Assembly (NCBI GenBank): GCA_003194425.1
Contig: PQXB01000001.1
Coordinates: 880,444-912,443 of the forward strand
Direction of reading: 5' to 3'
From: Candidatus Methanophagaceae archaeon
Lineage (GTDB): Archaea > Halobacteriota > Syntropharchaeia > Alkanophagales > Methanospirareceae
Length of the DNA: 32,000 bases
The notes beneath the pieces were generated by a model. The model searched no databases, was not told where the DNA came from, and saw only the letters and a list, made by a program, of their open reading frames with translations. The position numbers and the translations under genes are program-made. Shown here piece after piece: positions 1 through 14,904 of the stretch (the first letter of the stretch is position 1; each line of letters begins with the position of its first letter).

Positions 1-1770
1 GTTAGAACACATCAAGTACTCCAAATACGGATTCCTTGCGATTCTGCTCCTTATTTCCTGGCTTATTTCCTCCTCCCACCCCCTAATGTCCTCCTCTTCA
101 CCCAGAAGTCGCACAAGAACCTCCCTCCTTCTTCCCCCCCGCCCGTCCCTGCTTCTCGACTCGTGCAGAAAGACCACCACCGCACTCGGTCGCCTCCCGA
201 GTTCAGGGTACTGCTCAAACAACCGCATATATTCCTCCGCACTCGGCGGCCCCATATCTATTTTTATCTTCGGCGCCCGATTTATCGTTATCTTGTTCCA
301 ACTCAACGCCGCGTCCTCGAACCCCGGCACCGCCGCCAGCCGCACCCGCAATTCCGCTCTCGAACCCTTCGGCGGAGACAACAAAGCCTCCCCTAACTCC
401 TCTTCAGTCAGTAGCCGCACCACGCCCACTCGGTCCGCTACTTGCTCGTACAAGTCGTGTTCGCCGAGATTGGTAAACTCGAACGAAGCCGCTATTTCCT
501 TCTCCGCCTGCTCGTCCATTTTATAAAGGCTTCGGTAGTCGAACCGCCCCTTTGGTCTCTCTTCGTACTCAAAATCCGCGAGTTCATTTTTTAACACCCA
601 CCACTTCAGCACCCACTCCAAACGCCGCACCACAAACGGGTCCTCAAGCAGCCCCTGACCAAACTTGTCGCAAAGCCTCTTAAAAGTGTCCAGCACATAT
701 TTGTCCCAGTAGGAAGTCTCCCTCTCTGCGAACAACTCCTCAATCGCCGCGAGGTAGTGAGAATTGAGGTAGTCGATCGCTGACTCGGTCCGCCTGTTCA
801 TCAATTTTATCCGCCACCCGCCTTCCCCGTTCGTGTTCGCCGAGATCTCCTTGAAAGTCTGAAGAGGGTTCCAAATCTCCTCGATGTGTGTAATTTTTCC
901 GCACTCGATCGCGTCAATTACGTACGAAGTGAGTGCGTTGTTGAGCAGTCGTGTTACTTCAGACCGAACACCCTCACCAGAAGTAACATGCACACGATAA
1001 AAATCCTTCGTACTCAAGGGCTCGTCCCGCGTCGACAAAATCGGCCACTGCGACGGCGACTCTGTGAGAACGCGCTTCGAAACCATCGCTTTCGGCGAAA
1101 TTACATATTTTAAACCTCCTCTCACTCCTCTTTCTCCTCTCCCTGCCCCCCTCTCTCCACCTGCCTTCTCCGCCACGAACCCGCCAGCGCCAAAGAAAAT
1201 CTTACGAAGCACCAAGAACGGCACGAGCAGACCCTCTTTGCCCACGAATTTCTTCCGCTTCACAATGTAGGACTCGTGCGTGCCTCTACTGTACCGCTTG
1301 TCAATCTCGACATTCGCCTTCCAGCACTGAATGCTTACGTGTGTTGCGTGTGCGGAGCCTCCTCGTCCCCCTTTCCCTCGTCCCTGTCCCTGCTTCCCCA
1401 GCCTCTTTCTGAGCCTCTCGTTCGCTTCCTCAACGCCGATTTGCATAAACAACTCCGCCGCCTTGTCGTACTTCAGCACCTCAAACGCGTCCCTGCACTC
1501 CGGCGTCGCGATTTCAAGGTGACCTCCAGTGCAGATGTAAATCCGCGAGCCGTTCCGCAAGAACCCATCGTTCCGCCGCCGCAGCTTCGAGCAGACCGCT
1601 GCCGTGCCGTCAAAAAAAGAGTAATTCTCAAGCGCACGAATCACTTCGTCCACGTGGTAAAATCTGGCGTACCTGTACAACCCCGGCGATTCCGAACTTA
1701 TTCCGACCCTGAATTCGTGCTCCAACCCCTGCCACCTGCTCAAATCCCCTTCCATCTTTTTTCCTCCCAT
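1..1770 (-). CDS. Pup-ligase/deamidase family protein (PafA/Dop-like carboxylate-amine ligase); the 3' end runs off the left edge of the window
   Basis: The gene is absent from the ORF track because no stop codon lies inside the window. I translated the reverse strand by hand from ATG 1770, and the frame stays open to position 1 (590 codons). An alternative ATG at 1755 has GGAGG about 8 nt upstream and is probably the true start. The family motifs occur in order: GLEHEFRV, FLRNGSRIYICTGGHLEIATPEC, SRGTHESYIV, LLVPFLVLRKIFFGAGG, WPILSTRDEP, YRVHVTSGEGVRSE, WNPLQTFKEIS, RLEWVLKWW. These match my recollection of M. tuberculosis PafA ([91 protein letters not shown]). G/R-rich inserts are GKQGQGRGKGGRGG and EKAGGERGAGRGERGVRGG. 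Confidence 0.85.
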   Translation of the reverse strand, partial: MGGKKMEGDLSRWQGLEHEFRVGISSESPGLYRYARFYHVDEVIRALENYSFFDGTAAVCSKLRRRNDGFLRNGSRIYICTGGHLEIATPECRDAFEVLKYDKAAELFMQIGVEEANERLRKRLGKQGQGRGKGGRGGSAHATHVSIQCWKANVEIDKRYSRGTHESYIVKRKKFVGKEGLLVPFLVLRKIFFGAGGFVAEKAGGERGAGRGERGVRGGLKYVISPKAMVSKRVLTESPSQWPILSTRDEPLSTKDFYRVHVTSGEGVRSEVTRLLNNALTSYVIDAIECGKITHIEEIWNPLQTFKEISANTNGEGGWRIKLMNRRTESAIDYLNSHYLAAIEELFAERETSYWDKYVLDTFKRLCDKFGQGLLEDPFVVRRLEWVLKWWVLKNELADFEYEERPKGRFDYRSLYKMDEQAEKEIAASFEFTNLGEHDLYEQVADRVGVVRLLTEEELGEALLSPPKGSRAELRVRLAAVPGFEDAALSWNKITINRAPKIKIDMGPPSAEEYMRLFEQYPELGRRPSAVVVFLHESRSRDGRGGRRREVLVRLLGEEEDIRGWEEEISQEIRSRIARNPYLEYLMCSN

Positions 1771-1836
1771 TTTTCTTTTACTAAAGCTTTTCCTCCTAAG
1801 AAAAAGTGTTAAGAAAAAAAACTTTAAGAAAAGCTT

Positions 1837-3612
1837 TTAATAATGCATTCCCGTCTCCTCGTCAGGCATCTCGCCGTAGCCCGACGCCAAAATCTCCTCC
1901 GCCCTTCGCTGCACGAACTTGTCAAAACCCTCTTTCAAATGCCGCATATTCACGCCAATCTCCTCCACGCGTTTGTACCGCCGCTCCAAATCCGCAGTCT
2001 TCCTTTCAGCGTCCAATATCGCCGCAATTCCTTCCTTGTCCCACATTTTTCTAATCTCCTCTTTCTTCTCGTCGTTGCTGATCGTCCCGCGTTTTAGCAT
2101 CAGCAGTGTCCGCTCCTCCAACGCCTTGTCGCGTGCGTAGTTGAATATTTGTGCAATGAACCGTCCGGTAATTGTGTCTGCCCGCTTTATCCTTCCTATT
2201 TCGGTCTCGACATAATTTTCACTGCACATATAGTCAACAATCTCGCTCACCAAACGCGCCCTCGCCTCTTCTTCTCCAGCTCCTTCTGTTCTTCCCTTTC
2301 CTTCTTCTCCTGCACCCTCGCCTCCTCTTCCTTCTTCTCCTCCTCCTGCTTCCTTTATCAAGAGGTGGTCAATCGGAATCTTTCTGGCGTAGAGCGAGGC
2401 GATAGAACGCACCGCTTCCTTGTCAGGCTTCGGAACCTCGATTATTTTGTCAAACCTCGCCCTGAACGCGGAATCGATGAGGTGCAGCCTGTTCGTCGCT
2501 CCGATCACCGTGAGGTGCGGGTGCAAGGCGTGAAAGCCCTCTAACAAGTCCAGCAACTGCCCCGTTACCCGTTCAGGCGCCCCTGAAGAGCCTGAGTACA
2601 TTCCTCGCTCCTGTGCAAGTGCGTCAATTTCATCGAAGAAAATCACGCCGTAGTCGTTCTCACCCTCCACCAATTTCGCGTTCGCCGACTCGAAAATCAT
2701 CCGCACATTCTTCTCCGACTCGCCGAGCCACATACTGAAAAGCTCGCCTGCCCCCACCTTCACGAATTCGCAGTTTGGCAGCGCCGACGCCAGCGCCTTC
2801 GCACACATCGTTTTCCCGCAGCCTGGCAGCCCGTACATCAAAATCCGCCGCGAGCACTCCCCGTATTTCGCGTAGTCCTCGGGGTTCAGCATCGGTAGAA
2901 TAACGCTCTTCACCAACTCCTGCTTCACCTCTTTCAACCCGCCAATCTCGTTAAAACTCACACCCGGACTCTTCGTGACCTCGTAGTGTGAGATCTCGGT
3001 CTGCTTGAAACTCCTTTTTATGTCAAACGTGCCAGGCAGAAGTCCTACCTTCGTCCCTACTTTCAGTCCCTCCTGCTGCTCTTCGGTCAGCCTTTTGAAA
3101 ATCCTGCCTCGTCCCCTGCCTGTTGAGATTTCCGCTACCCAACCGCCGCTACCTCCGCCGCTACCTCCGCCGCCGCGTCCGCGGCCACTGCCGCCACCAC
3201 TGCTGTCGTCGCCGTCCTCGTCCTTCCGCAGTTCCTCTACCTCTCCGACCTCCAAATCCACAAACCTGTCGTACACCTTCGTGATGCCCACACTGAACCC
3301 GTTTGGGCTGTTACGGTCTGGAATTCGCCCGATGAAAACATATTTCCCCTCCTCCAACTCCGCAACCTCCCTCGCAGTAAGCGTGCCGTAAGGTAAAGCC
3401 TTTAAAGCACCGTTCAAATTCACAATCGCACCCTCTTCTGTCTTTTCAACCACGAACCCGCAGTCCAGAGGAGGCGACCTCGCTTTCGAGACAAGCCGCT
3501 CCAAATCCGCCTTGTACGCCTCTGTCTCCTCGTACTTCCGCATCAGCCGCCTGTAGTCGCTCTCCAACTGCTCGTACTCGTATCTTGGAATATATTCCTC
3601 CCTCTCTTCCAT
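1837..3612 (-). CDS. AAA+ ATPase, proteasome-associated type (Mpa/ARC-like or PAN-like unfoldase)
   Basis: This is a 591-aa ORF. It has an N-terminal coiled coil (EYEQLESDYRRLMRKYEETEAYKADLERLV) followed by a PP-containing linker and OB-like segments. Walker A is GLPGCGKT (nt 2809-2832) and Walker B is VIFFDEID (nt 2623-2646); the ATNR sensor region is present. A long C-terminal helical extension contains the insert YVETEIGRIKRADTITGRFIAQIFNYARDKA, which resembles the Mpa/ARC-specific insert. Low-complexity inserts are DGDDSSGGGSGRGRGGGGSGGGSGG (3142-3222) and GGGEEGRGGEGAGEEGKGRTEGAGEEE (2263-2352). The AAA+ call is secure; the subfamily call is moderate. Confidence 0.85.
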   Translation of the reverse strand: MEEREEYIPRYEYEQLESDYRRLMRKYEETEAYKADLERLVSKARSPPLDCGFVVEKTEEGAIVNLNGALKALPYGTLTAREVAELEEGKYVFIGRIPDRNSPNGFSVGITKVYDRFVDLEVGEVEELRKDEDGDDSSGGGSGRGRGGGGSGGGSGGWVAEISTGRGRGRIFKRLTEEQQEGLKVGTKVGLLPGTFDIKRSFKQTEISHYEVTKSPGVSFNEIGGLKEVKQELVKSVILPMLNPEDYAKYGECSRRILMYGLPGCGKTMCAKALASALPNCEFVKVGAGELFSMWLGESEKNVRMIFESANAKLVEGENDYGVIFFDEIDALAQERGMYSGSSGAPERVTGQLLDLLEGFHALHPHLTVIGATNRLHLIDSAFRARFDKIIEVPKPDKEAVRSIASLYARKIPIDHLLIKEAGGGEEGRGGEGAGEEGKGRTEGAGEEEARARLVSEIVDYMCSENYVETEIGRIKRADTITGRFIAQIFNYARDKALEERTLLMLKRGTISNDEKKEEIRKMWDKEGIAAILDAERKTADLERRYKRVEEIGVNMRHLKEGFDKFVQRRAEEILASGYGEMPDEETGMHY

Positions 3613-3650
3613 TTTTTCTTTTTTCCCTCTTTTTTCCTTCTTCTTTCCCT

Positions 3651-3745
3651 CTACTCTCCCTCTACTCTCCTCTACTCTCCCTCTACTCTCCTCTACTCTC
3701 CCTCTACTCTCCTCTACTCTCCCTCTACTCTCCTCTACTCTCCCT
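3651..3745. repeat. Tandem repeat, 21-bp unit (ctactctccct + ctactctcct) in about 4.5 copies, in the divergent intergenic region
   Basis: Direct reading shows 'ctactc' recurring at alternating 11/10-bp spacing nine times. The + frame translation has a 7-aa period (PLLSLYS). The tract is polypyrimidine on the + strand, so it is polypurine on the leader side of the AAA gene. Confidence 0.9.
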
Positions 3746-3774
3746 CTTCTTCTCTCTCCTCTCTAAAAAAGAGT

Positions 3775-3839
3775 TAAGTTTATAAAAATCTAATTATCTC
3801 AAGATTTTATAATATATAGAAAGAATAGGAGTAAGTAGG
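3775..3839 (+). promoter_or_regulatory. Putative archaeal promoter and SD for the phoU-like gene
   Basis: This is an AT-rich block with TATA-like boxes 'gtttataaaaatc' (about 3777-3789) and 'ttttataatatata' (about 3804-3817). 'aggagtaagtagg' lies directly before ATG 3840. Confidence 0.45.
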
Positions 3840-4934: not shown

Positions 4935-6449
4935 ATGTTAGAAAAGTTAGGCAGTTCGCTGAAGGAGACTTTTCGGAAAATAGCGAAGGCGAAGCGGATT
5001 GACAAGCAGACAGTGGACGAGCTCGTGCGGGACATTCAGCGGGCACTGATTCAGGCGGATGTCAAGATTTCGCTGGTCAAGGAACTCTCAGCTCACATCC
5101 GCGAGCGGGCGTTGAAGGAGAAGTTGGTGCTGAACCCGCGAGAGCACGTGATTAAGGTTGTCTACGAGGAGTTGGTTCGGATAATTGGGCGGGGAGTGAC
5201 GGTTCCGTTGGCGTCGCAGAAGATAATGCTGGTGGGCTTGAACGGGGCTGGAAAGACCTCCACCTGCGCCAAGCTTGCGCGGTATTTTCAGAAGAAGGGC
5301 TTGAAGCCTGCGGTTGTTTGCGCGGATATTTACAGACCCGCAGCGTCTGACCAGCTGCGGCAGTTGTGCGAGAAAATCGGCGTTCCGTTTTACGACGGCA
5401 GCGGTGCAGGCAGTGCAGGTAGTGCGGGCAGTGCAGGTAGTGCGGGCAGTGCAGGTAGTGCGGGCAGTGCAGGTAGTGCGGGCAGTGTGGGCAGTGCGGG
5501 TCTTCTTGATGCGAAAGATGTGCTGGGCATAGTGAAGGAGGGGGTGAAAGAGTTTAGGAAGTACGATGTCAGGATAATTGACACCGCGGGGAGGCACGCA
5601 CTTGAGGAGGAGATGATAAATGAAATACGCGAAATTGAAGAGGCGGTAAAGCCGGAGCAGCGGTTTCTTGTTCTTGACGCGAGCATTGGACAGCAGGCGG
5701 CGGTGCAGGCGAGGGCGTTTGACGACGCGGTTGGAATCAGCGGCATAATTATTACCAAAATGGACGGGACTGCGAAGGGCGGCGGGGCTCTCTCCGCGGT
5801 CTCGGAGACGAACTCAGGGGTTGCGTTTATCGGGACAGGTGAGAAAGTGGACGATTTGGAGCGGTTCGAGTCCGACAGGTTTCTCTCTCGCCTGCTCGGA
5901 ATGGGGGACCTAAAGGGCTTGATTGAGACGGCGGAGGAGAGTCTGAAAGAGGAGGATCTGGACGCTGAGGAGTTCTTGAGAGGCAGGTTCACGCTGAAGG
6001 ATTTGTACAAGCAGTTGGAGGCGGTGAGAAAAATGGGGCCGATGAAGAAGTTGCTGCAGATGCTTCCTTTGGGCAGTTTAGCGGGTTTGGGCAGTTTAGC
6101 GGGTTTGGGCGGTTCAGGCAGAGGCGGGCAGGAGTTGAAGTTGGACGATGCAATGTATCAGGTCACCGAGGAGAAGCTGAAGAAGTTCAAGGTGATGATG
6201 GATTCGATGACCGAGCAGGAGTTGAGCGAGCCGAAAATAATCGACGGCTCGCGGTTGCGGCGGATTGCGAGGGGCTCGGGGACGACGACTGCGGAGGTGA
6301 ACGAGCTGATAAAATATCACAAGATGATGCAAAAAATGATAAAGAGTTTGAGCAGTGGAGGGTTGAGAGGAATTGGAATGGGCAAGATACAGGGGATGAT
6401 GAAAGGAATGGCACCGCTGGGCAAGATGATGAAAAAGCGAGGAATGTAA
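4935..6449 (+). CDS. srp54: Signal recognition particle protein SRP54
   Basis: The 504-aa product has an N domain and a G domain with GLNGAGKTST (G1), IIDTAGRH (G3) and ITKMDGTAKGG (G4). It ends in a Met-rich M domain (MGPMKKLLQMLP ... MMQKMIK ... MMKGMAPLGKMMKK). AGGAGG lies 8 nt upstream of the ATG. It contains (GSA)n and GSLAGL repeat inserts. Confidence 0.95.
   Translation: MLEKLGSSLKETFRKIAKAKRIDKQTVDELVRDIQRALIQADVKISLVKELSAHIRERALKEKLVLNPREHVIKVVYEELVRIIGRGVTVPLASQKIMLVGLNGAGKTSTCAKLARYFQKKGLKPAVVCADIYRPAASDQLRQLCEKIGVPFYDGSGAGSAGSAGSAGSAGSAGSAGSAGSAGSVGSAGLLDAKDVLGIVKEGVKEFRKYDVRIIDTAGRHALEEEMINEIREIEEAVKPEQRFLVLDASIGQQAAVQARAFDDAVGISGIIITKMDGTAKGGGALSAVSETNSGVAFIGTGEKVDDLERFESDRFLSRLLGMGDLKGLIETAEESLKEEDLDAEEFLRGRFTLKDLYKQLEAVRKMGPMKKLLQMLPLGSLAGLGSLAGLGGSGRGGQELKLDDAMYQVTEEKLKKFKVMMDSMTEQELSEPKIIDGSRLRRIARGSGTTTAEVNELIKYHKMMQKMIKSLSSGGLRGIGMGKIQGMMKGMAPLGKMMKKRGM
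5412..5501 (+). repeat. In-frame tandem repeat inside srp54: 18-bp unit agtgcaggtagtgcgggc, 4 perfect copies plus 1 degenerate copy
   Basis: Direct reading. It encodes GSAGSAGSAGSAGSAGSAGSAGSVGSAG between the 'GVPFYDG' strand and the helix preceding DTAGR. A second 18-bp x2 repeat (ggcagtttagcgggtttg) lies at about 6072-6110 in the M domain. Confidence 0.95.
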
Positions 6450-6526: not shown

Positions 6527-7849
6527 ATGAAAGCGTTGGTCTTCGAGCCGTTTTCGGGTGCTTCTGGGGATATGGTAATCGGCAGCCTGCTGGATTTGGG
6601 GGCGGACGAGTCGAAAGTAAGAGACGCTGTCTCTGGTCTTGGTTTTGACCTCGAGCTGGAGGTGAAAGAAGTGAAGAGGCGCGGGGTAGTGGCTAAAAAG
6701 GTGGAGTTCGTGAGTGAAGGCGAGAGCAGTGCTGAAAGGAAAAGAAACAGAAGCGAGAGGTCTTACAAGGAAATTGCGAACGCGATAAAAGACAGCGGAC
6801 TGACAAAAGAGGTAAAAGAGAACTCGTTGGGTGTTTTTGAAAAAATCGCGACTGCCGAGGCGAGGGTGCACGGCGAGCCGAAGGAGAGCCTGACCTTTCA
6901 CGAACTCGGGGCTCTCGACACGCTCGGCGACCTCGTAGGGAGCAGCACGGCGTTCCTTGACCTTCGCCCCGAGACCGTCGTGAGCACGCCAATTTCAGTG
7001 GGCAGTGGCTTCGTGGAGACCGAGCACGGGCTTCTTCCCGTCCCCGCACCCGCAGCACTCGAAATCTTGAAAGACACTTCTTTGTTGTTTCAGGGTGGTG
7101 GTTCTGCAGGAGAACTGCTCACGCCGACGGGTGCGGCGATTTTCGCACATTTTGTTCAGCGTTCTCAACCGTTCTTGCCGCGAATGCGCGTCGAGAGGAC
7201 GGGCTACGGAGCAGGGTCAAAGGACTTGCCGAGAACCCCGAATGTCTTGAGAGCGATTTTTGGTGAAATTGAAGTTGAGGAGCCTGCACCGCCGCTGCTG
7301 TTAAGGGACGAGGTGGCGGTTCTGGAGACCAACCTCGACAATGTTACTGGCGAAGTGCTGGGCAATTTGGTGGAGGTTTTAATGGCAGAGGGCGATGCAG
7401 AAGCGGGAGGAGTAAAAGATGTGGCGGTCGTGCCTGCACAAATGAAGAAAGGCAGAAGCGGACAGATCGTAAAAGTAATCGTCGCACCGCAAGACGCCCC
7501 CAGAATTGCTCACCGAATAATGCAAGAGACCGGCTCGTTGGGCGTTCGTGTTATGCAAGTAAAGCAGCGGTTCGTTGCCGAGAGGGAACAACGGAAGGTG
7601 AAGGTGAAAATCGGAGGCACGGAGAAGGAGCAGGAGAAGGAGAAGGAGCAGGAGCAGGCGAAGGAGAAGGAGCAGGAGAAAGAGGTAGAAGTAGAAGTAG
7701 GGGTAAAAATCGGGAGGGACGCGAGGGGAAATTTGCTGAGCGTGGCTGCGGAGTTTGAGGATGCGAAGCGGGTCGCGAGGGAGCGGAAAGTTCCGCTAAA
7801 GGAAGTGCAGAGGCTTGCGGAAGAGACCGCGAGGAAAAGTTTAGTTTGA
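6527..7849 (+). CDS. larC: LarC-family nickel insertion protein (DUF111; nickel-pincer cofactor biosynthesis)
   Basis: The 440-aa product has the N-terminal signature FEPFSGASGDMVIGSLLDLGAD and later HELGALDTLGDLVG, LLPVPAPA, LTPTGAAI and RTGYGAG, all typical of DUF111/LarC. An EKEQ/EVEV low-complexity insert is encoded at about 7619-7700. Confidence 0.85.
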   Translation: MKALVFEPFSGASGDMVIGSLLDLGADESKVRDAVSGLGFDLELEVKEVKRRGVVAKKVEFVSEGESSAERKRNRSERSYKEIANAIKDSGLTKEVKENSLGVFEKIATAEARVHGEPKESLTFHELGALDTLGDLVGSSTAFLDLRPETVVSTPISVGSGFVETEHGLLPVPAPAALEILKDTSLLFQGGGSAGELLTPTGAAIFAHFVQRSQPFLPRMRVERTGYGAGSKDLPRTPNVLRAIFGEIEVEEPAPPLLLRDEVAVLETNLDNVTGEVLGNLVEVLMAEGDAEAGGVKDVAVVPAQMKKGRSGQIVKVIVAPQDAPRIAHRIMQETGSLGVRVMQVKQRFVAEREQRKVKVKIGGTEKEQEKEKEQEQAKEKEQEKEVEVEVGVKIGRDARGNLLSVAAEFEDAKRVARERKVPLKEVQRLAEETARKSLV

Positions 7850-8002
7850 GTTAGAGCAGATTTGAGGAAGAAACCCAACGGCTTTAGTGCGGTCGTTGGA
7901 TAATATGCAAGCCTTAAAATTTTATGCAAAGATAATTTCAAAGATATTGGGGATGACATTTAGAAGAGAGTAGATGAAAAAGGGCAGATTCGGGGAGTAG
8001 CA

Positions 8003-8185
8003 ATTCTTAACTTCAGGAGAAGAGCGGAGAAGGGGGAAATAGAACTGCCGTACAAGTTGAGCCTTTCAAAGTCGGTTTAGCAAGAAAATATTTGATGTCT
8101 ATTTGATAGTTTATGATAACGAAGGCATATTTATAATAACAAGCATATAAAGTAAAGACTAAAAGGGAGAGGAAGAGAAAATGAA
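8003..8185. repeat. Direct repeat copy 1 (about 180 bp): promoter/leader module upstream of the TA cassette
   Basis: This copy aligns by eye with 8840-9023 at an offset of 837-838 bp. Long identical blocks include attcttaacttcaggagaagagc, gagaagggggaaatagaac, cctttcaaagtcggtttag, aagaaaatattt, tttatgataac and ataaagtaaaga. It contains the TATA-like 'gcatatttataataac' and runs into the ATG (atgaaaaa). Confidence 0.9.
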
Positions 8186-8435
8186 AAATTCGCAAAATTT
8201 CGCTCATGTGAGGATGAAGGCGCATTCAGTTATTGAAAGATTGTCTGAAAGCGAAATTGAAGAAATCTTGTCCCTTTTTGAGCAGGTCTTGGGGGAGAAA
8301 AGAGTTGGTTCGGCTGAAGAGGGGTGGAGAGCTTTTATGGAAATGGGCGAAGATGGTCTCGGCAGCAAATTGCAGAATGCCTCTGAAGAGCATGATAAAT
8401 ACCTCTACAGGAGAAAAGAGGGTGATTTTTATTGA
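8181..8435 (+). CDS. Putative antitoxin (VapB-like by position)
   Basis: This 84-aa acidic ORF lies immediately upstream of, and overlaps, the PIN-domain gene. I recognise no family signature, so the call rests on context only. An alternative start is M12 at 8214. Confidence 0.5.
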   Translation: MKNSQNFAHVRMKAHSVIERLSESEIEEILSLFEQVLGEKRVGSAEEGWRAFMEMGEDGLGSKLQNASEEHDKYLYRRKEGDFY

Positions 8436-8838
8436 CACTGGAGCCTGGATTGCCTTAGAAGATGTGAATGACAGAAACCACGCTGAAGCGGTGAAGTTCA
8501 GAGATAAACTCAGGAACGAAAATGAACGGCTTATTACCTCTTCTTATGTATTGGATGAAACTTACACTTTCCTGCTCCTCCACATTGGCTACGAGAAGAC
8601 GCTACTTTTTCATAATAGAATTCAAAGAATGAAGTTAGGTGGCGGCGTACTTGAGGTTTTTCATATCTCTGAGCAGACAGAAGAGGAAGGCTGGGTGGTC
8701 TTCAAAAGATTTAACAGCGATAAAAAGTGGTCTTTTACTGACTGCACGAGTAAAGTGGTGATGGACTCATTAAGGATTCACGCGGTGTTCACTTTTGACT
8801 ATCATTTCGAGCAGATGGGGTTTGCCCGAAAGCCATAA
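8392..8838 (+). CDS. vapC: PIN-domain ribonuclease toxin (VapC-like)
   Basis: The product contains VIFIDTGAWIAL (first acidic residue), SYVLDETYTFL, WSFTDCTS and FTFDYHF, which is the conserved PIN acidic quartet pattern. The ORF-track start at 8233 is an over-extension into the antitoxin. Likely starts are ATG 8392, or GTG 8422 which is preceded by ggagaaaagagg. Confidence 0.8.
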   Translation: MINTSTGEKRVIFIDTGAWIALEDVNDRNHAEAVKFRDKLRNENERLITSSYVLDETYTFLLLHIGYEKTLLFHNRIQRMKLGGGVLEVFHISEQTEEEGWVVFKRFNSDKKWSFTDCTSKVVMDSLRIHAVFTFDYHFEQMGFARKP

Positions 8839-8839
8839 T

Positions 8840-9023
8840 ATTCTTAACTTCAGGAGAAGAGCTGAGAAGGGGGAAATAGAACCACCGTTTGTGCTGAACC
8901 TTTCAAAGTCGGTTTAGTAAGAAAATATTTAATGTCTATTCAATATATTTATGATAACAAGAGCATATTTTAATAACAAAGATATAAAGTAAAGAATAGA
9001 AGGGAGAATAAAGATAAGATGAA
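8840..9023. repeat. Direct repeat copy 2 (about 180 bp): promoter/leader module upstream of the giant surface protein gene
   Basis: See copy 1. This copy begins immediately after the vapC stop codon (8836-8838) and ends in the ATG of the 1961-aa ORF (atgaagaa). It has the TATA-like 'gcatattttaataac'. Confidence 0.9.
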
Positions 9024-12000
9024 GAAAAGCGAAAGGGGGGAGAAAGGGATAATGAGAAAAGGGGTAGCAATTGCGATTTTGGCGATTGTGTGGTCTGTTT
9101 TTGGCGGTGGCGCGGTCTCGGCGGCGGGAGAGACTGTGTTAGAGGCAGAGGATTTAACGAATAATGCAAGCTTTGAAGAATTGGTTAAATTTAATATTAT
9201 CGCTTTGGATGATGATATCGTAGAAACTCCTCCGTTTGAGTTGGAGTTCTGCGCTACAGGAGAAGTGGCTACATATGGCGGCGATTATTCTCGTGGGGTC
9301 ACTGTTGACAAAAACAACGGCAAGATAGAGTCTTATACTTATGCTGTTAGTGCGTTCCTCGGTTCAAGTGCCGCTATTACAATCGGTGGCACAGGGGACA
9401 CCATCAACATTCCCGCTGACGGCGAGTACAGAATTACTCCTACTTTCCGCATCAAAGGTAAAATTGGGGCTGACGACCTTCAGGTGTTACCCACCTCAGG
9501 CTCAGGCTCCAGTTTTTGCATTTTTTTGTCCGTAGAAGATAAAGAGGATTCAGAGAAATATTCTCAGAATTTTGGGATAGCGGACGCAGATGTCGCAACC
9601 TGCGAGTTGGCAGAAGCCCCAGAAGTCATTCTAAAAGAAATAGCCAGTCTCTTGGTAGAAGGGCTTACGGGAGTCTCTCTCACTCCGCCAAGTCCTGGCC
9701 ACCGAGCCATAAAAATAGACGGAACCGTGAAAAAATCGGTGCAGACATTTCTGCCAAAAGGCGACTACAACATTCTGGGTGCTTGTGAGCTAAGGAGTGC
9801 GTCGGCGACACTTGGTCCTGCAACCTCTTCAACTTATGCAGACTTCTCAAGATCCTCTCTCTCTCTTTTTGACGATGAGCCTTCGGCTGATGAATATGTA
9901 AAACTAACAGAGATTAGAATTGAGAAAGTGGAAGGAGAGAACACACCGCCTCTTGCGGGATTCACACCAACCAAAGCAGAGATTTATGTCGGGCAGTCGG
10001 TTAGCTTTGACGCTTCGGAGAGCAAAGATTATTTCGGCTCTGTAGAAAATTATTACTGGGAGTTCGAAGGTGGCAGCCCCTCTACTTCCACCTCCAAGAG
10101 ACCCACCGTAGAGTGGAACAGTCCCGGAATATACAAAGCCACACTCAAAGTTCAGGACAACGAAGGTGCGTGGAGTGCCCCTGCCAGCGGAACGGTTACC
10201 GTGAGAAACCGCCCTGCGACGGGGAGCATCTCAATGAGTCCAGAAAACCCTGTGAAGAGCCAGTTGATAACATTCACAGCTGATGTGCAGGACCCAGAAG
10301 GAATTACAATTTATCTCTGGAACTTTGGCGATGGCATTTCGACCGCAGTAGGGAAGCAGGCTACACACGCGTACAAATATGCGGGCAGTTATGAGGTCAC
10401 ATTAACAGTAGAGGACAAGTTCAACGGCGTGACCAAGTTCACAAGGACGGTTGAGGTCAGCGAGTGGTCGGGCTCGTCTGAGATTAGGATCGACGAGGTC
10501 TGGGCTGTGGACGGGGTTGACCTTGTGGGAGGGCATCGCCCACATTTGGAAGACCTTCGTGTAGGCTTCAAAGGTTATTCAGACGGCTACGAGTTCTGCG
10601 ACGCTTATGATGTTCGGGTTTTTGACGAGACTCGTGGAATTTTGTTAGGGACGAAGTCGGGTGAAGAGAATATGGAACTCGGGGATCGCGTCTGGTGCGG
10701 GATGGACAAGACACTGTTCAGAAAGACAGGTGCTCGTAACCTCAAGATAATAGCTCATCATTCAGGCGGCAATGAGGCAGAGGCAGTATTGAAAATAAAT
10801 GTGGGGGTTGACAACACTCAAAGCAAATACTACAACAATTTCAACATATTTCCCTCGCGCCCTTATGCCGGCGAGACTGTTACCGTTGACGCCACGCATT
10901 TGAGTGAAGATGCAAGCGGAAATCCGATTTTAGGCTACGACTGGTTCGTTATTCAAGAAGGGCATCAGCCGATATGGAACGAGCCGGGACCCAGTAAGAT
11001 AACTTTCGTCCCTCAGGACACAGGCGAATACTACATCTGCCTGAGTAACACAGAGCAGTACGACGCTTATTTGATAGACGACTTCGACCTTTGGGTGCGG
11101 GAGAGCGGCTACTACGAACCGCATCTGACGATAACAGAATTCACAGTCCCAAGCACAGCGGTTCTGGAGAAGGGGTGCCCTGTAACTACAAAGATAACGA
11201 ACTCTGGGAATGAATACGGGCATTTCATTGTGCGGTACAAAGTAGACGGAAAAATCGTTGATATTGACACTGGTTATGTGTGCGAGAAGGATAAAGAGAC
11301 GCTGAGAAATACGCTTGTCTTGCCTGAAGGCTCGCACACAGTCGCGATTGATTTCATAAACGCAGAGAACCAGTTAGTAACAAAAAGTAAGACAGTGAGT
11401 GTAGTCAAAAATAAGCCGCCGACGGTAGAGGTCGCGAGCATTTCGCCAGCCGAGATTTTTATGGGTGCTCTTGTTACTTTCGTTGCGAGTGCGAGCGACG
11501 CCGACGGTAAGGTCTCAAAAGTGGTTTGGAACTTTGGGAACGGTGCTACCGCCACTGGCGAGACCGTTACTTACAGTTACCCAAAGACCGGGAATTACAT
11601 CGTCCGAGTGGTGGTTACAGACGACTGCGGTGCGACGGCGGAGGACTGTGCAGAGGTTACTGTAAAACCCCTCAACACGCCACCTTACAAGCCGAGTGCC
11701 CCCTCGCCGTCTGACGGTGCTACCGGGGTCTCGGTTGCGGCGGAGTTGAGGTGGAGCGGTGGCGACCCCGAGGGCGATTCTGTGTCCTACGATGTTTTTC
11801 TTGAGAAGGGAGACAGCACGCCGGATGTTTTGGTCTCGGACGACCAAGTCGTCGAGACCTTCACCCCCGCGGGGCTGGATTTCGAGTCGCACTACTTCTG
11901 GAAGGTCGTGGCTACAGACGAGAACGGTGCCACTACCGAGGGGGCTGTCTGGGACTTCTGGACCGAGGCAGCGCCGCCGCCCGCTCCGCCTGCTGTCACT

Positions 12001-14904
12001 TCCTTCGCTCCCCCTTCACCTGTAGCCGACGAAGAAGGGGCGACGAGAACTTTCAGCCTCTCTACTGACCAGACCGTTGAGGTGGTTTGGCAGGTTAACG
12101 GCACGACGGTGCAGAGAGACGCAGGCGTGACCTCTTCCGCCTACACAAACACCAGCGCTGCAGTCGGGGTCTGGAATGTGTCCGCGGTCGCGAGGAACGC
12201 AAACGGCACAGTGAGGCAGACTTGGGTCTGGAGTGTGGCGCCGAAGAACCGACCCCCAACCGCAGATTTCTCCTTCTCTCCTTCGCTTCCTTCTGCGGGT
12301 GAGGAAGTGAATTTTGACGCTTCCGCCTCAAAAGACTCGGACGGCTCAATCGTCTCTTACGACTGGGAGTTCGGCGACGGGAAGAGCGGGACAGGGGAAA
12401 CGACAAAACACTCGTACTCGGAGGGTGGGACTTACGCGGTGAATTTGACGGTAACAGACGACGACGGTGCTACCAACCGAACAACAAAAATCGTTGCGGT
12501 TAGCAAAGTCCCAAAGGTTATTTTCGTGCCCGACGACTACGCGACGATTCAAGCAGCGGTGAACGCCGCCTCGCCCGGCGACACGATTATCGTCCGCGAC
12601 GGGACTTACTGCGAGAATGTAGAAATCAGCACCCCGCACCTGACAATTCGCTCCGAGAACGGCTCTGACCGAACGACTGTTCTGGCTAAGGATCCAAAAG
12701 ACCACGTCTTCAATGTGGCCGGGGATTTCGTTAACCTCTCTGGCTTCACTGCTACTGGCGCTGAAGACTGGAATGCAGGGATTTACCTCTACCACGCAGC
12801 CCACTGCAACATTTCCTTCAACAACGCTGAGAACAACAACAACTACGGCATCTGGCTGGATTATTCGAGCAACAACATTTTGACGGGCAACATCGCTAAC
12901 TACAACAACAACTACGGCATCTGGCTGGATTATTCGTGCAACAACAACTCCCTTACCGGCAACAACGCTGAGAACAACAAGTACGGCATCTGGCTGGATT
13001 ATTCGTGCAACAACAACTCCCTTACCGGCAACAACGCTGAGAACAACGACGTCGGCATCTTGCTGGATTATTCGAGCAACAACATTTTGACGGGCAACAC
13101 CGCTAACTACAACAGGTACGGCATCTTGCTGTATTCTTCGTGCAACAACAACTCCCTTACCGGCAACAACGCTAACTACAACAACAGGTACGGCATCCGA
13201 CTGTATTCTTCGAGCAACAACACGCTCACCGGCAACAAGATGTCAGGAAACCGTCACAACTTTGGTGTCTTGGGGCGTGAGGTTTCTGACTACATCCAAA
13301 AAATAGAAAGAAGCAACACGGTGGAGAGGAGGCCGGTTATTTATTGGGTAGAAGAGCGAGACAAGGAGGTGCCGAGCGATGCCGGTTATGTCGGAATAGT
13401 AAAATCCAAGAATATAACCGTCCGCAACCTAACACTGACAAACAATTCTGAAGGTGTGCTCTTCGTCAACACAGCAGATTCAAGAATAGAGAATGTTACT
13501 GCCTCTAACAACGACGACGGCATCTGGCTGAATTATTCGTGCAACAACAACTCCCTTACCGGCAACAACGCTAACTACAACTACTACTTCGGCATCTGGC
13601 TGTATTCTTCGTGCAACAACAACTCCCTTACCGGCAACAACGCTAACTACAACAACAGGTACGGCATCTTGCTGTCTGATTCGAGCAACAACACCCTTAC
13701 CGGCAACAACGCTGAGAACAACAAGTACGGCATCCGACTGTATTCTTCGAGCAACAACAAAATCTACCTCAACAACTTCTTCAACAACACCTACAGCAAC
13801 GTTGATTCTGATAAGTCAAAGAACAATTGGAGCACGAGCGAGAAGAGAACTTACAAGTACAAAGGAGCGAGTTACGAGAACTACCTCGGGAACTACTGGG
13901 GCGACTACGTAGGGAGCGACGAGGACGGGGACGGAATCGGCGAGACTGCTTACAGCGTAGACGAAGACGACAGAGACGACTACCCGCTGATGGAGCGGAG
14001 TGAGAGTTACTTTAAAGAGGAGGAGAACGAGCCGCCGGTAGCGGAGTTCAGCTACTCGCCGGAGGAGCCGGAGGAAAAAGAGGAGGTGAGGTTCAACGGC
14101 AGTGCATCTTACGACGAAGACGGAGCGGTAGAGGGTTACGAGTGGGAGTTCGGGGACGGGAGAAAAGGAACAGGAGAAACAGCAACGCATTCTTACGGCT
14201 CGGCAGGGAACTACACGGTGAATTTAACGGTAACAGACGACGACGGAGCGAGGAACTCAACAACGAAGACAGTTACAGTAAGCAGCGAGCAAACGCCAAC
14301 AGTGCCAACGGTCTCAATCAGAACAGACAAGACAGAGTACCACCCCGGCGACTTGATGAACAACACAATTCGCCTGAAGAACCCGAGAGAGACCGAAGAG
14401 CAGGTCTTCTTCGGGTGGTATTTTATCCTTACGGACAGCGGCGGTTGGGGCGAGATTTTGAGCACAGAACTAACGCTTCCACCGGGGTTTAACGAGACGT
14501 TCTCGGTGCCGCTGCGGGTTGGGTACTGGGCGCCGGTTGGGTTCAACGCGAGTTGGCGCGTCGTCCTTCTTAACACAACGACTTACGAAATAGTGAGCGT
14601 GGACGGGGCGGATTGGAAGTACGTGCCTGCGGCGAAGGCGAAAGAGGCGGGGAAGGCGGAGGGCGAAGGAGGGGGAGAGCGAGAGGAAAAAGGGGAAGTA
14701 GTGCCTGATGTACAAGTGCAAGTGCGGAACTACGATGTATTGAAAAAGTATCTCACGAAGCCAACGGATTTATTCGTTGGAGCTTCTCACAACAGTTTTC
14801 CCCGGTTCATTATCTCGTTCGGGTCCAGCACCCTGAGGAACTTCTTCCAAACCTCAGCGAGGTGCCCGATCCGCTCCACCGTCGGCTCAATTATCCCCGC
14901 GTAA
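9019..14904 (+). CDS. Giant secreted/cell-surface protein with PKD, CARDB-like and FN3-like modules and a NosD-type right-handed beta-helix
   Basis: The product is 1961 aa. A signal/anchor MRKGVAIAILAIVWSVFGGGAVSAAG follows M12 (nt 9052). Five PKD-type modules carry the F(D/N)ASxS ... WxFGDG ... HxY ... GxYxVxLTVxDDxG pattern (about nt 9943-10206, 10207-10461, 11413-11670, 12244-12504, 14026-14283). A CARDB-like module spans about nt 11116-11400. An FN3-like module (PSPSDGATGVS ... LRWSGGDPEGDSVSYDVFL ... HYFWKVVATDENG) spans about nt 11671-11964. A parallel beta-helix region with 22-23-aa NNxLTGNxAxxNxYGIxL repeats, ending in GNYWGDY ... DEDGDGIGE ... DDYPL, spans about nt 12511-13998. The last roughly 40 codons overlap the convergent gene and look non-protein-like. 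Confidence 0.85.
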   Translation: MKKSERGEKGIMRKGVAIAILAIVWSVFGGGAVSAAGETVLEAEDLTNNASFEELVKFNIIALDDDIVETPPFELEFCATGEVATYGGDYSRGVTVDKNNGKIESYTYAVSAFLGSSAAITIGGTGDTINIPADGEYRITPTFRIKGKIGADDLQVLPTSGSGSSFCIFLSVEDKEDSEKYSQNFGIADADVATCELAEAPEVILKEIASLLVEGLTGVSLTPPSPGHRAIKIDGTVKKSVQTFLPKGDYNILGACELRSASATLGPATSSTYADFSRSSLSLFDDEPSADEYVKLTEIRIEKVEGENTPPLAGFTPTKAEIYVGQSVSFDASESKDYFGSVENYYWEFEGGSPSTSTSKRPTVEWNSPGIYKATLKVQDNEGAWSAPASGTVTVRNRPATGSISMSPENPVKSQLITFTADVQDPEGITIYLWNFGDGISTAVGKQATHAYKYAGSYEVTLTVEDKFNGVTKFTRTVEVSEWSGSSEIRIDEVWAVDGVDLVGGHRPHLEDLRVGFKGYSDGYEFCDAYDVRVFDETRGILLGTKSGEENMELGDRVWCGMDKTLFRKTGARNLKIIAHHSGGNEAEAVLKINVGVDNTQSKYYNNFNIFPSRPYAGETVTVDATHLSEDASGNPILGYDWFVIQEGHQPIWNEPGPSKITFVPQDTGEYYICLSNTEQYDAYLIDDFDLWVRESGYYEPHLTITEFTVPSTAVLEKGCPVTTKITNSGNEYGHFIVRYKVDGKIVDIDTGYVCEKDKETLRNTLVLPEGSHTVAIDFINAENQLVTKSKTVSVVKNKPPTVEVASISPAEIFMGALVTFVASASDADGKVSKVVWNFGNGATATGETVTYSYPKTGNYIVRVVVTDDCGATAEDCAEVTVKPLNTPPYKPSAPSPSDGATGVSVAAELRWSGGDPEGDSVSYDVFLEKGDSTPDVLVSDDQVVETFTPAGLDFESHYFWKVVATDENGATTEGAVWDFWTEAAPPPAPPAVTSFAPPSPVADEEGATRTFSLSTDQTVEVVWQVNGTTVQRDAGVTSSAYTNTSAAVGVWNVSAVARNANGTVRQTWVWSVAPKNRPPTADFSFSPSLPSAGEEVNFDASASKDSDGSIVSYDWEFGDGKSGTGETTKHSYSEGGTYAVNLTVTDDDGATNRTTKIVAVSKVPKVIFVPDDYATIQAAVNAASPGDTIIVRDGTYCENVEISTPHLTIRSENGSDRTTVLAKDPKDHVFNVAGDFVNLSGFTATGAEDWNAGIYLYHAAHCNISFNNAENNNNYGIWLDYSSNNILTGNIANYNNNYGIWLDYSCNNNSLTGNNAENNKYGIWLDYSCNNNSLTGNNAENNDVGILLDYSSNNILTGNTANYNRYGILLYSSCNNNSLTGNNANYNNRYGIRLYSSSNNTLTGNKMSGNRHNFGVLGREVSDYIQKIERSNTVERRPVIYWVEERDKEVPSDAGYVGIVKSKNITVRNLTLTNNSEGVLFVNTADSRIENVTASNNDDGIWLNYSCNNNSLTGNNANYNYYFGIWLYSSCNNNSLTGNNANYNNRYGILLSDSSNNTLTGNNAENNKYGIRLYSSSNNKIYLNNFFNNTYSNVDSDKSKNNWSTSEKRTYKYKGASYENYLGNYWGDYVGSDEDGDGIGETAYSVDEDDRDDYPLMERSESYFKEEENEPPVAEFSYSPEEPEEKEEVRFNGSASYDEDGAVEGYEWEFGDGRKGTGETATHSYGSAGNYTVNLTVTDDDGARNSTTKTVTVSSEQTPTVPTVSIRTDKTEYHPGDLMNNTIRLKNPRETEEQVFFGWYFILTDSGGWGEILSTELTLPPGFNETFSVPLRVGYWAPVGFNASWRVVLLNTTTYEIVSVDGADWKYVPAAKAKEAGKAEGEGGGEREEKGEVVPDVQVQVRNYDVLKKYLTKPTDLFVGASHNSFPRFIISFGSSTLRNFFQTSARCPIRSTVGSIIPA
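12814..13233 (+). repeat. Intragenic tandem repeats, array 1 (66-69-bp units encoding beta-helix coils), near-identical at the DNA level
   Basis: One example is the 69-bp unit tacggcatctggctggattattcgtgcaacaacaactcccttaccggcaacaacgctgagaacaacaag, which occurs twice in perfect succession. Neighbouring units differ by only a few bases. Confidence 0.9.
13507..13773 (+). repeat. Intragenic tandem repeats, array 2 (same unit family as array 1)
   Basis: The block ggcatctggctg.attattcgtgcaacaacaactcccttaccggcaacaacgct recurs here and in array 1. The two arrays are separated by a unique beta-helix segment of about 270 bp. Confidence 0.9.

Follow-up and report, generated by a model that had tools for sequence, protein, structure and literature searches.

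We describe an operon that probably encodes an archaeal counterpart of the bacterial Pup system, i.e., a Pup-like pathway of protein tagging and unfolding. It starts in a 32,000-nucleotide stretch of the genome of a Candidatus Methanophagaceae archaeon (contig PQXB01000001.1, positions 880,444 to 912,443; hereafter the window, meaning this whole stretch) and continues past its left edge. The operon comprises, in this order, a gene for an AAA+ ATPase resembling the bacterial unfoldase Mpa, two genes for paralogues with the Pup_ligase fold (ligase 1 and ligase 2), and a small gene whose product, here called the tag, ends in Gly-[Glu/Gln]. A small G-[E/Q] tag, two adjoining Pup_ligase-fold paralogues, and an Mpa-like unfoldase with a docking-type tail together reproduce the logic of the Pup system. 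The gene content, the family membership and folds of the products, their conservation, and the purifying selection acting on the tag and its terminus are direct observations. A first-pass annotation, made from the window alone, had proposed a pupylation-type module in a genuinely archaeal chromosome, and our analysis supports this core reading.

Two of the four genes lie in the window:

1837..3612, minus strand: ATPase gene, 591 amino acids, first gene of the operon (open reading frame [ORF] listing and Pfam AAA match)
1771..1836, minus strand: 66-bp spacer between the ATPase and ligase 1 genes (from the gene coordinates)
1..1770, minus strand: ligase 1 gene, an open frame of 590 codons covering residues 1 to 590 of 637, cut by the window edge

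Both genes are on the minus strand and co-directional, and the 66-bp spacing given in the first-pass annotation is exact. The sequence past the window edge was taken from contig JAOQIL010000012.1 of assembly GCA_026133975.1 (locus L001), reached through a 99%-identical ligase 1 (P0001). The window and L001 are colinear at 98 to 99% nucleotide identity, except for a 6.9-kb insertion at about 7855 to 14791 of the window, so L001 is usable as a stand-in for the missing part. There, ligase 2 and the tag gene complete the operon, with all genes co-directional and successive gaps of 66, 15, and 62 bp. The first-pass annotation expected a Pup-like small ORF or 20S proteasome genes past the edge: the G-[E/Q] ORF exists, but after a second ligase, and no 20S gene lies within 8 kb. 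The canonical order mpa-dop-pup-prcBA-pafA, which had been invoked for the locus, does not apply either, the real order being ATPase, ligase, ligase, tag, with no prcBA.

Could the operon be a recently acquired fragment of a bacterial Pup-proteasome locus (mpa-dop-pup), or a bacterial contig that was mis-binned or mis-joined? Pup systems are otherwise reported from bacteria only (PMC2588565, PMC7947786), and a few loci bear bacterial bin names, such as "Desulfobacteria bacterium" for L042, although these names are apparently mislabeled. This explanation is effectively refuted. Neither GC content nor strand-linked skew shifts at the junction of the gene pair with the rest of the window, and L001, a contig from an independent metagenome-assembled genome (MAG), is colinear with it; hence, the region is neither a chimera nor a bacterial mis-join. 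The cassette lies among archaeal genes, with the same synteny, in more than 100 loci from many studies and samples. The orthologues found share between about 56% and 99% identity, as a gene set does that has long been resident and is diverging. Furthermore, neither ligase groups with the PafA or the Dop clade (bootstrap 66 for the split), both score far under the equivalog cut-offs, prcBA is absent, and the gene order is unlike that of the bacterial locus. A scan with one genome per species returned 61 loci, all from ANME-1 (anaerobic methanotrophic archaea, group 1)/Methanophagales, Alkanophaga, Methanoxibalbensis, Methanospirareceae, or mislabeled bins of the same clade, with ATPase, ligase 1, ligase 2, and small ORF following one another in this order throughout. 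The system looks vertically conserved in its clade rather than recently acquired from bacteria. Between the two origins first envisaged, an unrecognized archaeal variant is probable, and a recent acquisition of a bacterial module is not. Some loci deviate from the compact arrangement: L009, L012, L021, and L055 have 0.6 to 1.1 kb of extra sequence between the ligase genes, versus 15 bp in L001, and ligase 2 is missing after ligase 1 in L011, L019, and L030. These cases may be insertions or assembly breaks.

Ligase 1 belongs to the Pup ligase family, as the first-pass annotation held. Pfam Pup_ligase (PF03136) matches it with E=1.2e-52 and 179.8 bits, against a cut-off of 25. The NCBIfam equivalog models give 139.7 bits for Dop (TIGR03688, cut-off 492.3) and 135.2 bits for PafA (TIGR03686, cut-off 551.3), both under the cut-offs. 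Its structural model (predicted local distance difference test [pLDDT] 76.8; predicted template modeling [TM] score 0.80) matches Dop (2e-27) and PafA (2e-26) in Foldseek, with E values of Dop/PafA entries from 2e-27 to 4e-18 and target TM-scores of 0.69 to 0.86 (0.76 to 0.80 for Dop). The next family is YbdK (2e-5), about 13 orders of magnitude away. Since only Dop and PafA match and nothing else does better than 2e-5, families of the GCS2 or glutamine synthetase (GS) type are excluded; we rejected membership in GCS2, GS, or glutamate-cysteine ligase (GCL) on the PF03136 profile and the fold match alike. The protein is indeed atypically long (637 amino acids in P0001), with a C-terminal extension and G/R-rich inserts that the model renders as low-confidence loops (residues 131-142 and 204-217). 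By score it is ambiguous between PafA and Dop, and it has the PafA-like spacing of three residues between the Asp position and the His. Its closest homologues are in Methanophagales (ANME-1) MAGs, where GenBank names them "proteasome accessory factor PafA2 family protein" or, in one genome, "Pup--protein ligase."

The claim that this product carries every hallmark motif of the family did not hold, because one catalytic residue differs:

1531..1533, minus strand: codon of Cys80, at the position of the catalytic Asp (D57 in PafA, D94/95 in Dop); translation GSRIYICTGGHL

Where PafA and Dop read RLY[LV]D, ligase 1 reads RIYICTGGH. In a profile alignment to solved structures, Cys80 (GSRIYICTGGHLEIATPEC) falls column-exact on D57 of Corynebacterium glutamicum PafA, anchored by 4b0t (LYLDVGSH) and by the D57N crystallization mutant 4bjr (LYLNVGSH), whose Asn stands in the Cys80 column. 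The substitution is invariant in the clade: every one of the 102 close homologues in which the motif could be located has Cys, as do all 26 ANME-1-type ligase 1 sequences from metagenomes that align at this position, and it is also kept in relatives of 44 to 55% identity. The column holds Asp in 129 of 150 superfamily representatives, drawn from 2,851 sequences with E<=1e-3. All other active-site residues examined in the ANME-1 ligase 1 are retained (E17, E19, R76, Y78, E86, H165, and E166).

This pattern bears on the main rival to our reading, in which ligase 1 is a dead paralogue that serves as a scaffold, tag receptor, or ligase-ATPase adaptor, while ligase 2, which keeps the Arg-Tyr-Asp strand, would carry out ligation, deamidation, and removal and so resemble the promiscuous ancestor proposed for PafA and Dop. 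We regard this as unlikely, though a serious possibility. The catalytic Asp, which ligase 1 lacks, is essential in both PafA and Dop (PMC3511204, PMC13091356), the conserved C-terminal module and long helix of ligase 1 could be an interaction domain, and in a second group of loci (group 2, below) the ligase-1-like paralogue reads L/V-Y-H, the phosphate-binding Arg being lost as well. However, the ANME-1 protein retains every other active-site residue examined, and an invariant Cys (His in group 2) is chemically competent and not the drift expected of a dead site; ligase 2 itself lacks a near-universal Glu. The role proposed for the Asp is that of a base in PafA; for Dop, a base and even a nucleophile have been put forward (PMC3511204, PMC13091356). 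Rather doubtful is a thioester route in which the Cys-type ligase would, like PafA, first make the gamma-glutamyl phosphate of the tag, next capture it as an enzyme thioester, and finally transfer the tag to lysine. If true, this would be a hybrid of Pup-type and ubiquitin-type chemistry, Archaea would have their own Pup-type tagging, pupylation would not be a bacterial invention, and the His of the mini-tag systems of group 2 would be a second solution to the same step.

Ligase 1 also has relatives and parts of separate interest. Its clade shares a C-terminal module (...KTYRFDELDGWDEE.I..KIEEI..., followed by a long helix; residues ~590-637, ~11770-11911 in L001) that contains a conserved F[DN]ELDGWDEE and may be an interaction module. 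A stand-alone protein of 111 amino acids (P0490) matches the C-terminal region of ligase 1 only (profile positions 489-580). In two loci (L064, 10001-11488; L065, 5714-7201), a stand-alone Cys-type ligase-1-like gene of 495 amino acids (RIYLCD) is flanked by two GH57 glycoside-hydrolase genes, with no ATPase, second ligase, or G[EQ] tag nearby.

Ligase 2, of 564 amino acids in L001, is also a family member (PF03136, E=4.7e-66, 224 bits). Its scores are closer to Dop than to PafA, both with NCBIfam (192 and 143.6 bits, under the equivalog cut-offs of 492.3 and 551.3) and in PDB (130 versus 59 bits). It keeps the catalytic Asp within an R-Y-D-E-H pattern and shares with Dop the two-residue spacing between Asp and the following His; it reads STPSY in place of TPEC. 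The two archaeal paralogues are thus reciprocal: ligase 1 has Cys for Asp and keeps the rest, and ligase 2 keeps Asp and has lost the Glu. In Dop, a conserved Dop-loop of 40 to 65 residues precedes strand beta2 (PMC8599861). Both archaeal ligases have about 53 residues between GxExE and NGxRIY, a comparison of length only, with ~38 for PafA and ~75 for Dop as rough estimates. In a neighbor-joining tree of 160 sequences, ligase 1 (bootstrap 82) and ligase 2 (bootstrap 96) form separate clades, and a split with a bootstrap of 66, from a crude method and with weak support, sets both apart from the PafA and Dop anchors. Given these scores, the spacing, and this tentative placement, we do not call either of them an orthologue of PafA or Dop. 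A reading of the operon as a defense system was rejected, since PADLOC had no match for the ligases or the tag and matched the ATPase to IetA and TRIP13 through its generic AAA module alone.

The third component is the ATPase, whose main parts are as follows:

3481..3585, minus strand: coiled-coil helix, residues 10-44 (AlphaFold2 [AF2] model; sequence RYEYEQLESDYRRLMRKYEETEAYKADLERLVSKA)
2971..3465, minus strand: two beta domains resembling oligonucleotide/oligosaccharide-binding (OB) folds, residues 50-130 and 158-214 (DSSP on the model)
2809..2832, minus strand: Walker A, GLPGCGKT, of the single AAA module (translation, alignment)
1840..1854, minus strand: conserved C-terminal tail ...TGMHY (translation)

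The coiled coil, the OB-like segments, and the one AAA+ module (Pfam AAA, E=1.9e-33; residues 227-420) had all been recognized in the first-pass annotation, as had a hairpin-like insert in the C-terminal helical region; the AF2 model (pLDDT 73.9) shows the latter as a small beta-hairpin (467-476) within a helical domain of ~130 to 150 amino acids. Walker A and B, the Arg fingers, and the pore loop are intact in the alignment, with an aromatic-hydrophobic-Gly pore loop (M-W-L-G) and Walker B (IFFDEID) downstream of Walker A. Two further inserts are absent from the orthologues in other ANME-1: a strain-specific G-rich one between the beta domains (135-155), in the region of tandem 12-bp repeats at 3132-3200, and a disordered one (425-442). 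The N-terminal coiled coil, two OB-like domains, and one AAA module of the model are the architecture of Mpa/ARC.

Is this protein then an Mpa, or one of the known archaeal ATPases? Every curated NCBIfam model scores far under its cut-off: PAN at 169.1 bits (cut-off 500) and 153.4 bits (NF003069 and TIGR01242), CdvC at 149 (650), Cdc48 at 141 (803), and the Mpa equivalog pup_AAA (TIGR03689) at 135.4 (504.75). The 24 best Foldseek matches of the model are all Mycobacterium tuberculosis Mpa, with E values from 6e-21 to 6e-18 over about 550 aligned columns, followed by Rpt subunits (~1e-17), with PAN at rank 42. The TM-scores with Mpa are modest (0.4 to 0.56), as is to be expected of a flexible chain with several domains, and the Mpa likeness rests on the ranking and the aligned length. 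We used fold comparison in place of a PDB profile search with the ATPase family, in which Cdc48-type proteins came first only because they have two AAA modules. A place inside PAN or Cdc48, which would have overturned the initial proposal, was accordingly rejected; PAN is further set apart by its single OB domain, against two beta domains here. Full-length homologues occur only in the cassette-bearing lineages (ANME-1, Alkanophagales, and relatives), and elsewhere just the AAA module matches, e.g., Cdc48 at 34% coverage.

Both ends of the ATPase may be functionally informative. In Mpa, the coiled coil binds Pup (PMC8223512). Helix 10-44 is strongly conserved in the orthologue alignment, and by analogy it could be the docking site for the helical part of the tag. 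Of the ~54 ANME-1-type orthologues listed, nearly all have the C terminus E[ED]TGMH[FY], and one ends in MHL. Mpa uses a GxYx tail to dock on the 20S proteasome (PMC6466877), and the sequence suggests that the ANME-1 tail could be a variant of the GxYx/HbYX tails with the same role. Relatives of the ATPase in other cassettes end in GFYA, which matches GxYx, or in PFYV and SVYT, which match HbYX.

The tag gene of L001 encodes 97 amino acids (MGVEIMVSEGMDEAEEEGVEEEVEETEGGYASEKAEGENGCSAEAERGKEKEMASIMERLKKREQKKKAADLVSRLKGKKKVNKKIMPYEIYATSGE) that end in ...IMPYEIYATSGE, with a net charge of -16 in the first half and +9 in the second. Across the ANME-1 loci, tags combine a variable acidic N terminus, which is probably disordered, with a basic, helical middle region and an almost invariant end (...KAADLVSKLKGKKK.NKKIMPYEIYATSGE). 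We found a tag in 68 of the 76 ANME-1-type loci, from genomes and metagenomes, that have at least 450 bp after ligase 2; 64 end in SGE, 2 in SGQ, and 2 in AGE. Among background ORFs in these loci, 0.7% end in G[EQ]. The ratio of nonsynonymous to synonymous polymorphism (pN/pS) over the last 45 codons is 0.12, with a pS of 0.65, and the last two positions make use of all four codons for Gly and of both for Glu. The low ratio and the varied terminal codons show that the tag is a real gene with a C terminus under strong constraint. Pup has been defined operationally as a protein of 50 to 90 amino acids with a C-terminal G[EQ] that adjoins a PafA paralogue (Iyer et al. 2008, PMC2588565). The archaeal tags largely fit this definition: they end in SGE, AGE, SGQ, or GGE directly 3' of ligase 2, and most of them, with lengths of ~73 to 115 amino acids overall, are within that size range. 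A Pup with a Gln terminus requires deamidation by Dop before ligation (PMC3511204, PMC2588565), and alternation of E and Q at the tag terminus, as in the archaeal tags, is a hallmark of Pup. In L001, a convergent gene (13959-15164, minus strand), whose product fuses an N6/N4 DNA methyltransferase to an Mrr-like nuclease domain, shares 22 bp with the end of the tag gene, and a metallo-beta-lactamase-fold gene with a match to the Anti-Pycsar Apyc1 Pfam family comes next; this arrangement is probably unrelated to the operon.

Distant cassettes, found in part by a metagenome scan with distant ligase-2-like proteins, repeat the same logic independently (L063, L068, L070, and group 2), which supports our reading:

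L063: archaeal context (Sec61beta, Csl4, Mch); compact cassette with a 73-amino-acid tag ending in ...IMPYEIHAKSGE (KSGE); ATPase tail PFYV
L068: beside a triosephosphate isomerase (TIM) of the PRK04302 type; same four genes, with a 73-amino-acid tag ending in ...VVSTGGE; ATPase tail GFYA
L070: 115-amino-acid tag ending in ...RGTSGQ; ATPase tail SVYT
Group 2 (about 45 loci, from the metagenome scan): L066, L067, L071-L110, L113, L114, L132, L143

The GGE end of the L068 tag is the canonical Pup terminus. Group 2 loci have two ligase paralogues and an ORF of 35 to 45 amino acids that overlaps the stop of ligase 2, a mini-tag with the consensus ...LFPSFKKRKLKR.K..IKKEH.EVVAPPG[E/Q], in which E and Q are both common; no ATPase was found within 4 to 6 kb. 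The reciprocal pattern of the two ligases recurs here: the ligase-2-like paralogue always has R-Y-D-E, and in the ligase-1-like one the Arg is gone and the Asp position is mostly taken by His. The flanks of these cassettes (L066, L068, L070, and group 2) hold metabolic genes that are not diagnostic of taxonomy. A TIM matching PRK04302, which we take to be a model of the archaeal-type enzyme, occurs in L066 and L068 and is their sole archaeal hint. Directly downstream of the group 2 cassette in L076 lies a gene for an E1-like adenylyltransferase of the MoeB/ThiF/UbaA type (7853-8908, minus strand), which scores 213 bits with the model of the SAMP-activating E1, under its cut-off.

How might the system work? 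We infer conjugation, a division of labor between the paralogues, binding of the tag by the ATPase, and a link to the proteasome, in the following manner. The side-chain carboxylate of the C-terminal Glu of the tag (~75 to 97 amino acids) would be activated by ATP-dependent phosphorylation in a Pup_ligase-fold enzyme and then joined to lysines of target proteins; the rare Gln-ending tags would be deamidated first. One paralogue would ligate and the other deamidate or remove the tag. Tentatively, ligase 1 could be the ligase, given its intact ATP/metal site and PafA-like spacing but with Cys for the catalytic Asp, and ligase 2 the deamidase or remover, given that it keeps Asp and Arg and scores closer to Dop. 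The Mpa-like ATPase, as a hexamer, would recognize the tag helix with its N-terminal coiled coil, thread the tag with its W-L-G pore loops, unfold the substrate, and pass it to the archaeal 20S proteasome, on which it would dock by means of the conserved tail at its C terminus. Every archaeon is said to carry genes for proteasome components (PMC12288473).

Several observations weigh against this reading. No similarity in sequence between the tag and Pup or UBact could be detected with Pfam, NCBIfam, or PDB: it had no match at E<=10 in Pfam and NCBIfam, so the Pup (PF05639/TIGR03687) and UBact models, if included, are unmatched, and a search of PDB with the tag profile found no Pup chain. Eight loci are tag-less in cis, including both Alkanophaga genomes (also L006 and L018). 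Ligase 1, lacking the catalytic Asp, could be inactive or do different chemistry, and the same could be true of ligase 2, which has Gly where 137 of the 150 family representatives carry the Glu of "H-E-N-Y." By hidden Markov model score, the AAA module of the ATPase is nearer to PAN (169 bits) than to Mpa (135 bits), and the ANME-1 tail (G-M-H-[FY]) does not match GxYx, with His at the Tyr position. Every curated equivalog model scores the ligases and the ATPase far under its cut-off. Proteasome genes are absent within 8 kb of the operon in L001. Finally, conjugation, putatively by a covalent isopeptide bond from the terminal Glu to a substrate lysine, is a prediction.

Some of these points are also what a reading without degradative tagging would predict. 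The small protein could serve as a carrier or a precursor, with a small amine being ligated to its C-terminal Glu, as in the LysW/LysX amino-group carrier system or in a pathway to a peptide natural product, or it could be a non-degradative regulatory modifier, with the ATPase remodeling proteins without a proteasome. The lack of linked proteasome genes, the departure of the ANME-1 tail from GxYx, and the lack of an ATPase within 4 to 6 kb in group 2 are in its favor. We nevertheless consider it very unlikely, given the tight, conserved linkage to an unfoldase that resembles Mpa and has a coiled coil and a double beta domain, the canonical HbYX/GxYx tails of three relatives, and the Pup-like alternation of E and Q. 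Moreover, a long acidic, disordered N terminus would suit threading, and the neighborhood holds no conserved biosynthetic genes.

The rest of the window has its own features. Upstream of the ATPase lies the following region:

3613..3839, minus strand: divergent intergenic region 5' of the ATPase gene (sequence)

It holds a TATA-like AT-rich element at ~3775-3790, a candidate promoter by sequence, followed by a purine-rich 21-bp tandem repeat (3648-3763, 5.5 copies, Tandem Repeats Finder score 202; GGAGAGTAGAGGGAGAGTAGA-like on the coding strand). The repeat is probably within the 5' leader of the operon, between the TATA-like element and the ATPase start codon. The remaining genes include those for SRP54, LarC, a PhoU/AbrB regulator, Fwd-type subunits, and a large PKD/NosD surface protein. 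The segment absent from L001 (7855-14791) carries a PIN-domain gene (8233-8838) and the gene of the 1961-amino-acid PKD/NosD beta-helix surface protein (9019-14904), GC falls to 0.39 at 8 to 9 kb, and the segment looks like a strain-specific insertion. This strain also has in-frame G/S/A/E/R-rich low-complexity inserts, built from short tandem DNA repeats, in proteins that are otherwise unrelated: the ATPase, ligase 1 (residues 131-142 and 204-217), SRP54 ("GSAGSAGSA..."), and LarC (positions of the inserts 3132-3200, 2299-2352, 5404-5500, and 7621-7684).

We found no description of an archaeal Pup system in the literature searched, which left most subscription journals outside its coverage, and no paper there that combines pupylation with ANME, Methanophagales, or related terms. 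A large comparative-genomics paper on ANME does not mention proteasome, PafA, Pup, or ubiquitin. The foundational comparative study of Pup (PMC2588565) and a phylogenetic study of 2020 (PMC7947786) cover bacterial lineages and phyla only, and reviews up to 2026 treat pupylation as a bacterial pathway, mainly actinobacterial and nitrospiral, and credit archaea with SAMP/ubiquitin-like tagging. The ligase genes, although uncharacterized, are already auto-annotated in GenBank, and their presence is not hidden. Apparently not described before are the tag itself, the system of four genes, the substitution by Cys/His, and the likeness of the ATPase to Mpa. In most assemblies the tag genes seem to lack annotation, which makes the pathway invisible to routine annotation.

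The hosts are ANME-1, the main anaerobic methane oxidizers of marine sediments, the Alkanophagales, and probably other uncultured archaea. A Pup-like operon would add a third protein-tagging route to the archaeal proteasome and reopen the question of the origin of the Pup system and of Mpa, including the direction in which proteasome parts were transferred between archaea and bacteria. The contested Asp of PafA and Dop has natural replacements here, Cys and His, and these could settle whether the residue acts as a base or a nucleophile. The proposed pathway also makes a prediction for ANME metaproteomes, namely lysines carrying +1354.61 Da, the tryptic remnant IMPYEIYATSGE.

Among known systems, the single-copy PafA/Dop-like proteins of Planctomycetes and Deltaproteobacteria are similar in being divergent, in branching apart from PafA and Dop, and in having no linkage to proteasome genes (PMC2588565, PMC7947786). 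They differ in being bacterial, single copy, and often with membrane insertions, and they are not reported with an Mpa-like ATPase or with Cys/His at the catalytic position. PAN and the SAMP/UbaA system share the archaeal host, and PAN likewise has a coiled coil, an OB domain, one AAA module, and an HbYX tail. Yet our ATPase scores far under the PAN cut-off (500), even if PAN is the highest score of its AAA module (169 bits), has two beta domains where PAN has one, bears a helical C-terminal extension of ~150 amino acids, and has full-length homologues only in the cassette-bearing lineages. SAMPs are beta-grasp proteins activated by E1 adenylation, whereas the tag is a low-complexity protein paired with ligases of the glutamine-synthetase fold. 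The UBact systems of Gram-negative phyla, reportedly described by Lehmann et al. in 2017, are said to have divergent Pup-like tags with [ST]-G-[EQ]-like ends that depart from GGQ/GGE, and to be encoded with Mpa, Dop, and PafA homologues in the bacterial order with prcBA; such an end resembles the ATSGE end of the ANME-1 tag. The bacterial Pup-proteasome system of Actinobacteria and Nitrospirae (Mpa/ARC, Dop, Pup, PrcBA, PafA) differs in its host, in gene order (here ATPase, ligase, ligase, tag), and in having prcBA and pafBC, which are missing here. Neither ANME-1 ligase is, tentatively, orthologous to PafA or Dop; ligase 1 has Cys for the catalytic Asp, and ligase 2 has lost the Glu of the H-E motif. 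The ANME-1 tag ends in SGE rather than GGE/GGQ, has a basic rather than acidic helical region, and shows no detectable homology to Pup, and the ATPase tail is GMH[FY], not the GxYx of Mpa. Still, the two have in common a pair of paralogues of the PF03136 fold beside a small, low-complexity G-[E/Q] tag, an AAA+ protein with a coiled coil, two beta domains, a conserved C-terminal tail, and Mpa as its best structural match, and a clustered, co-directional arrangement of the genes.

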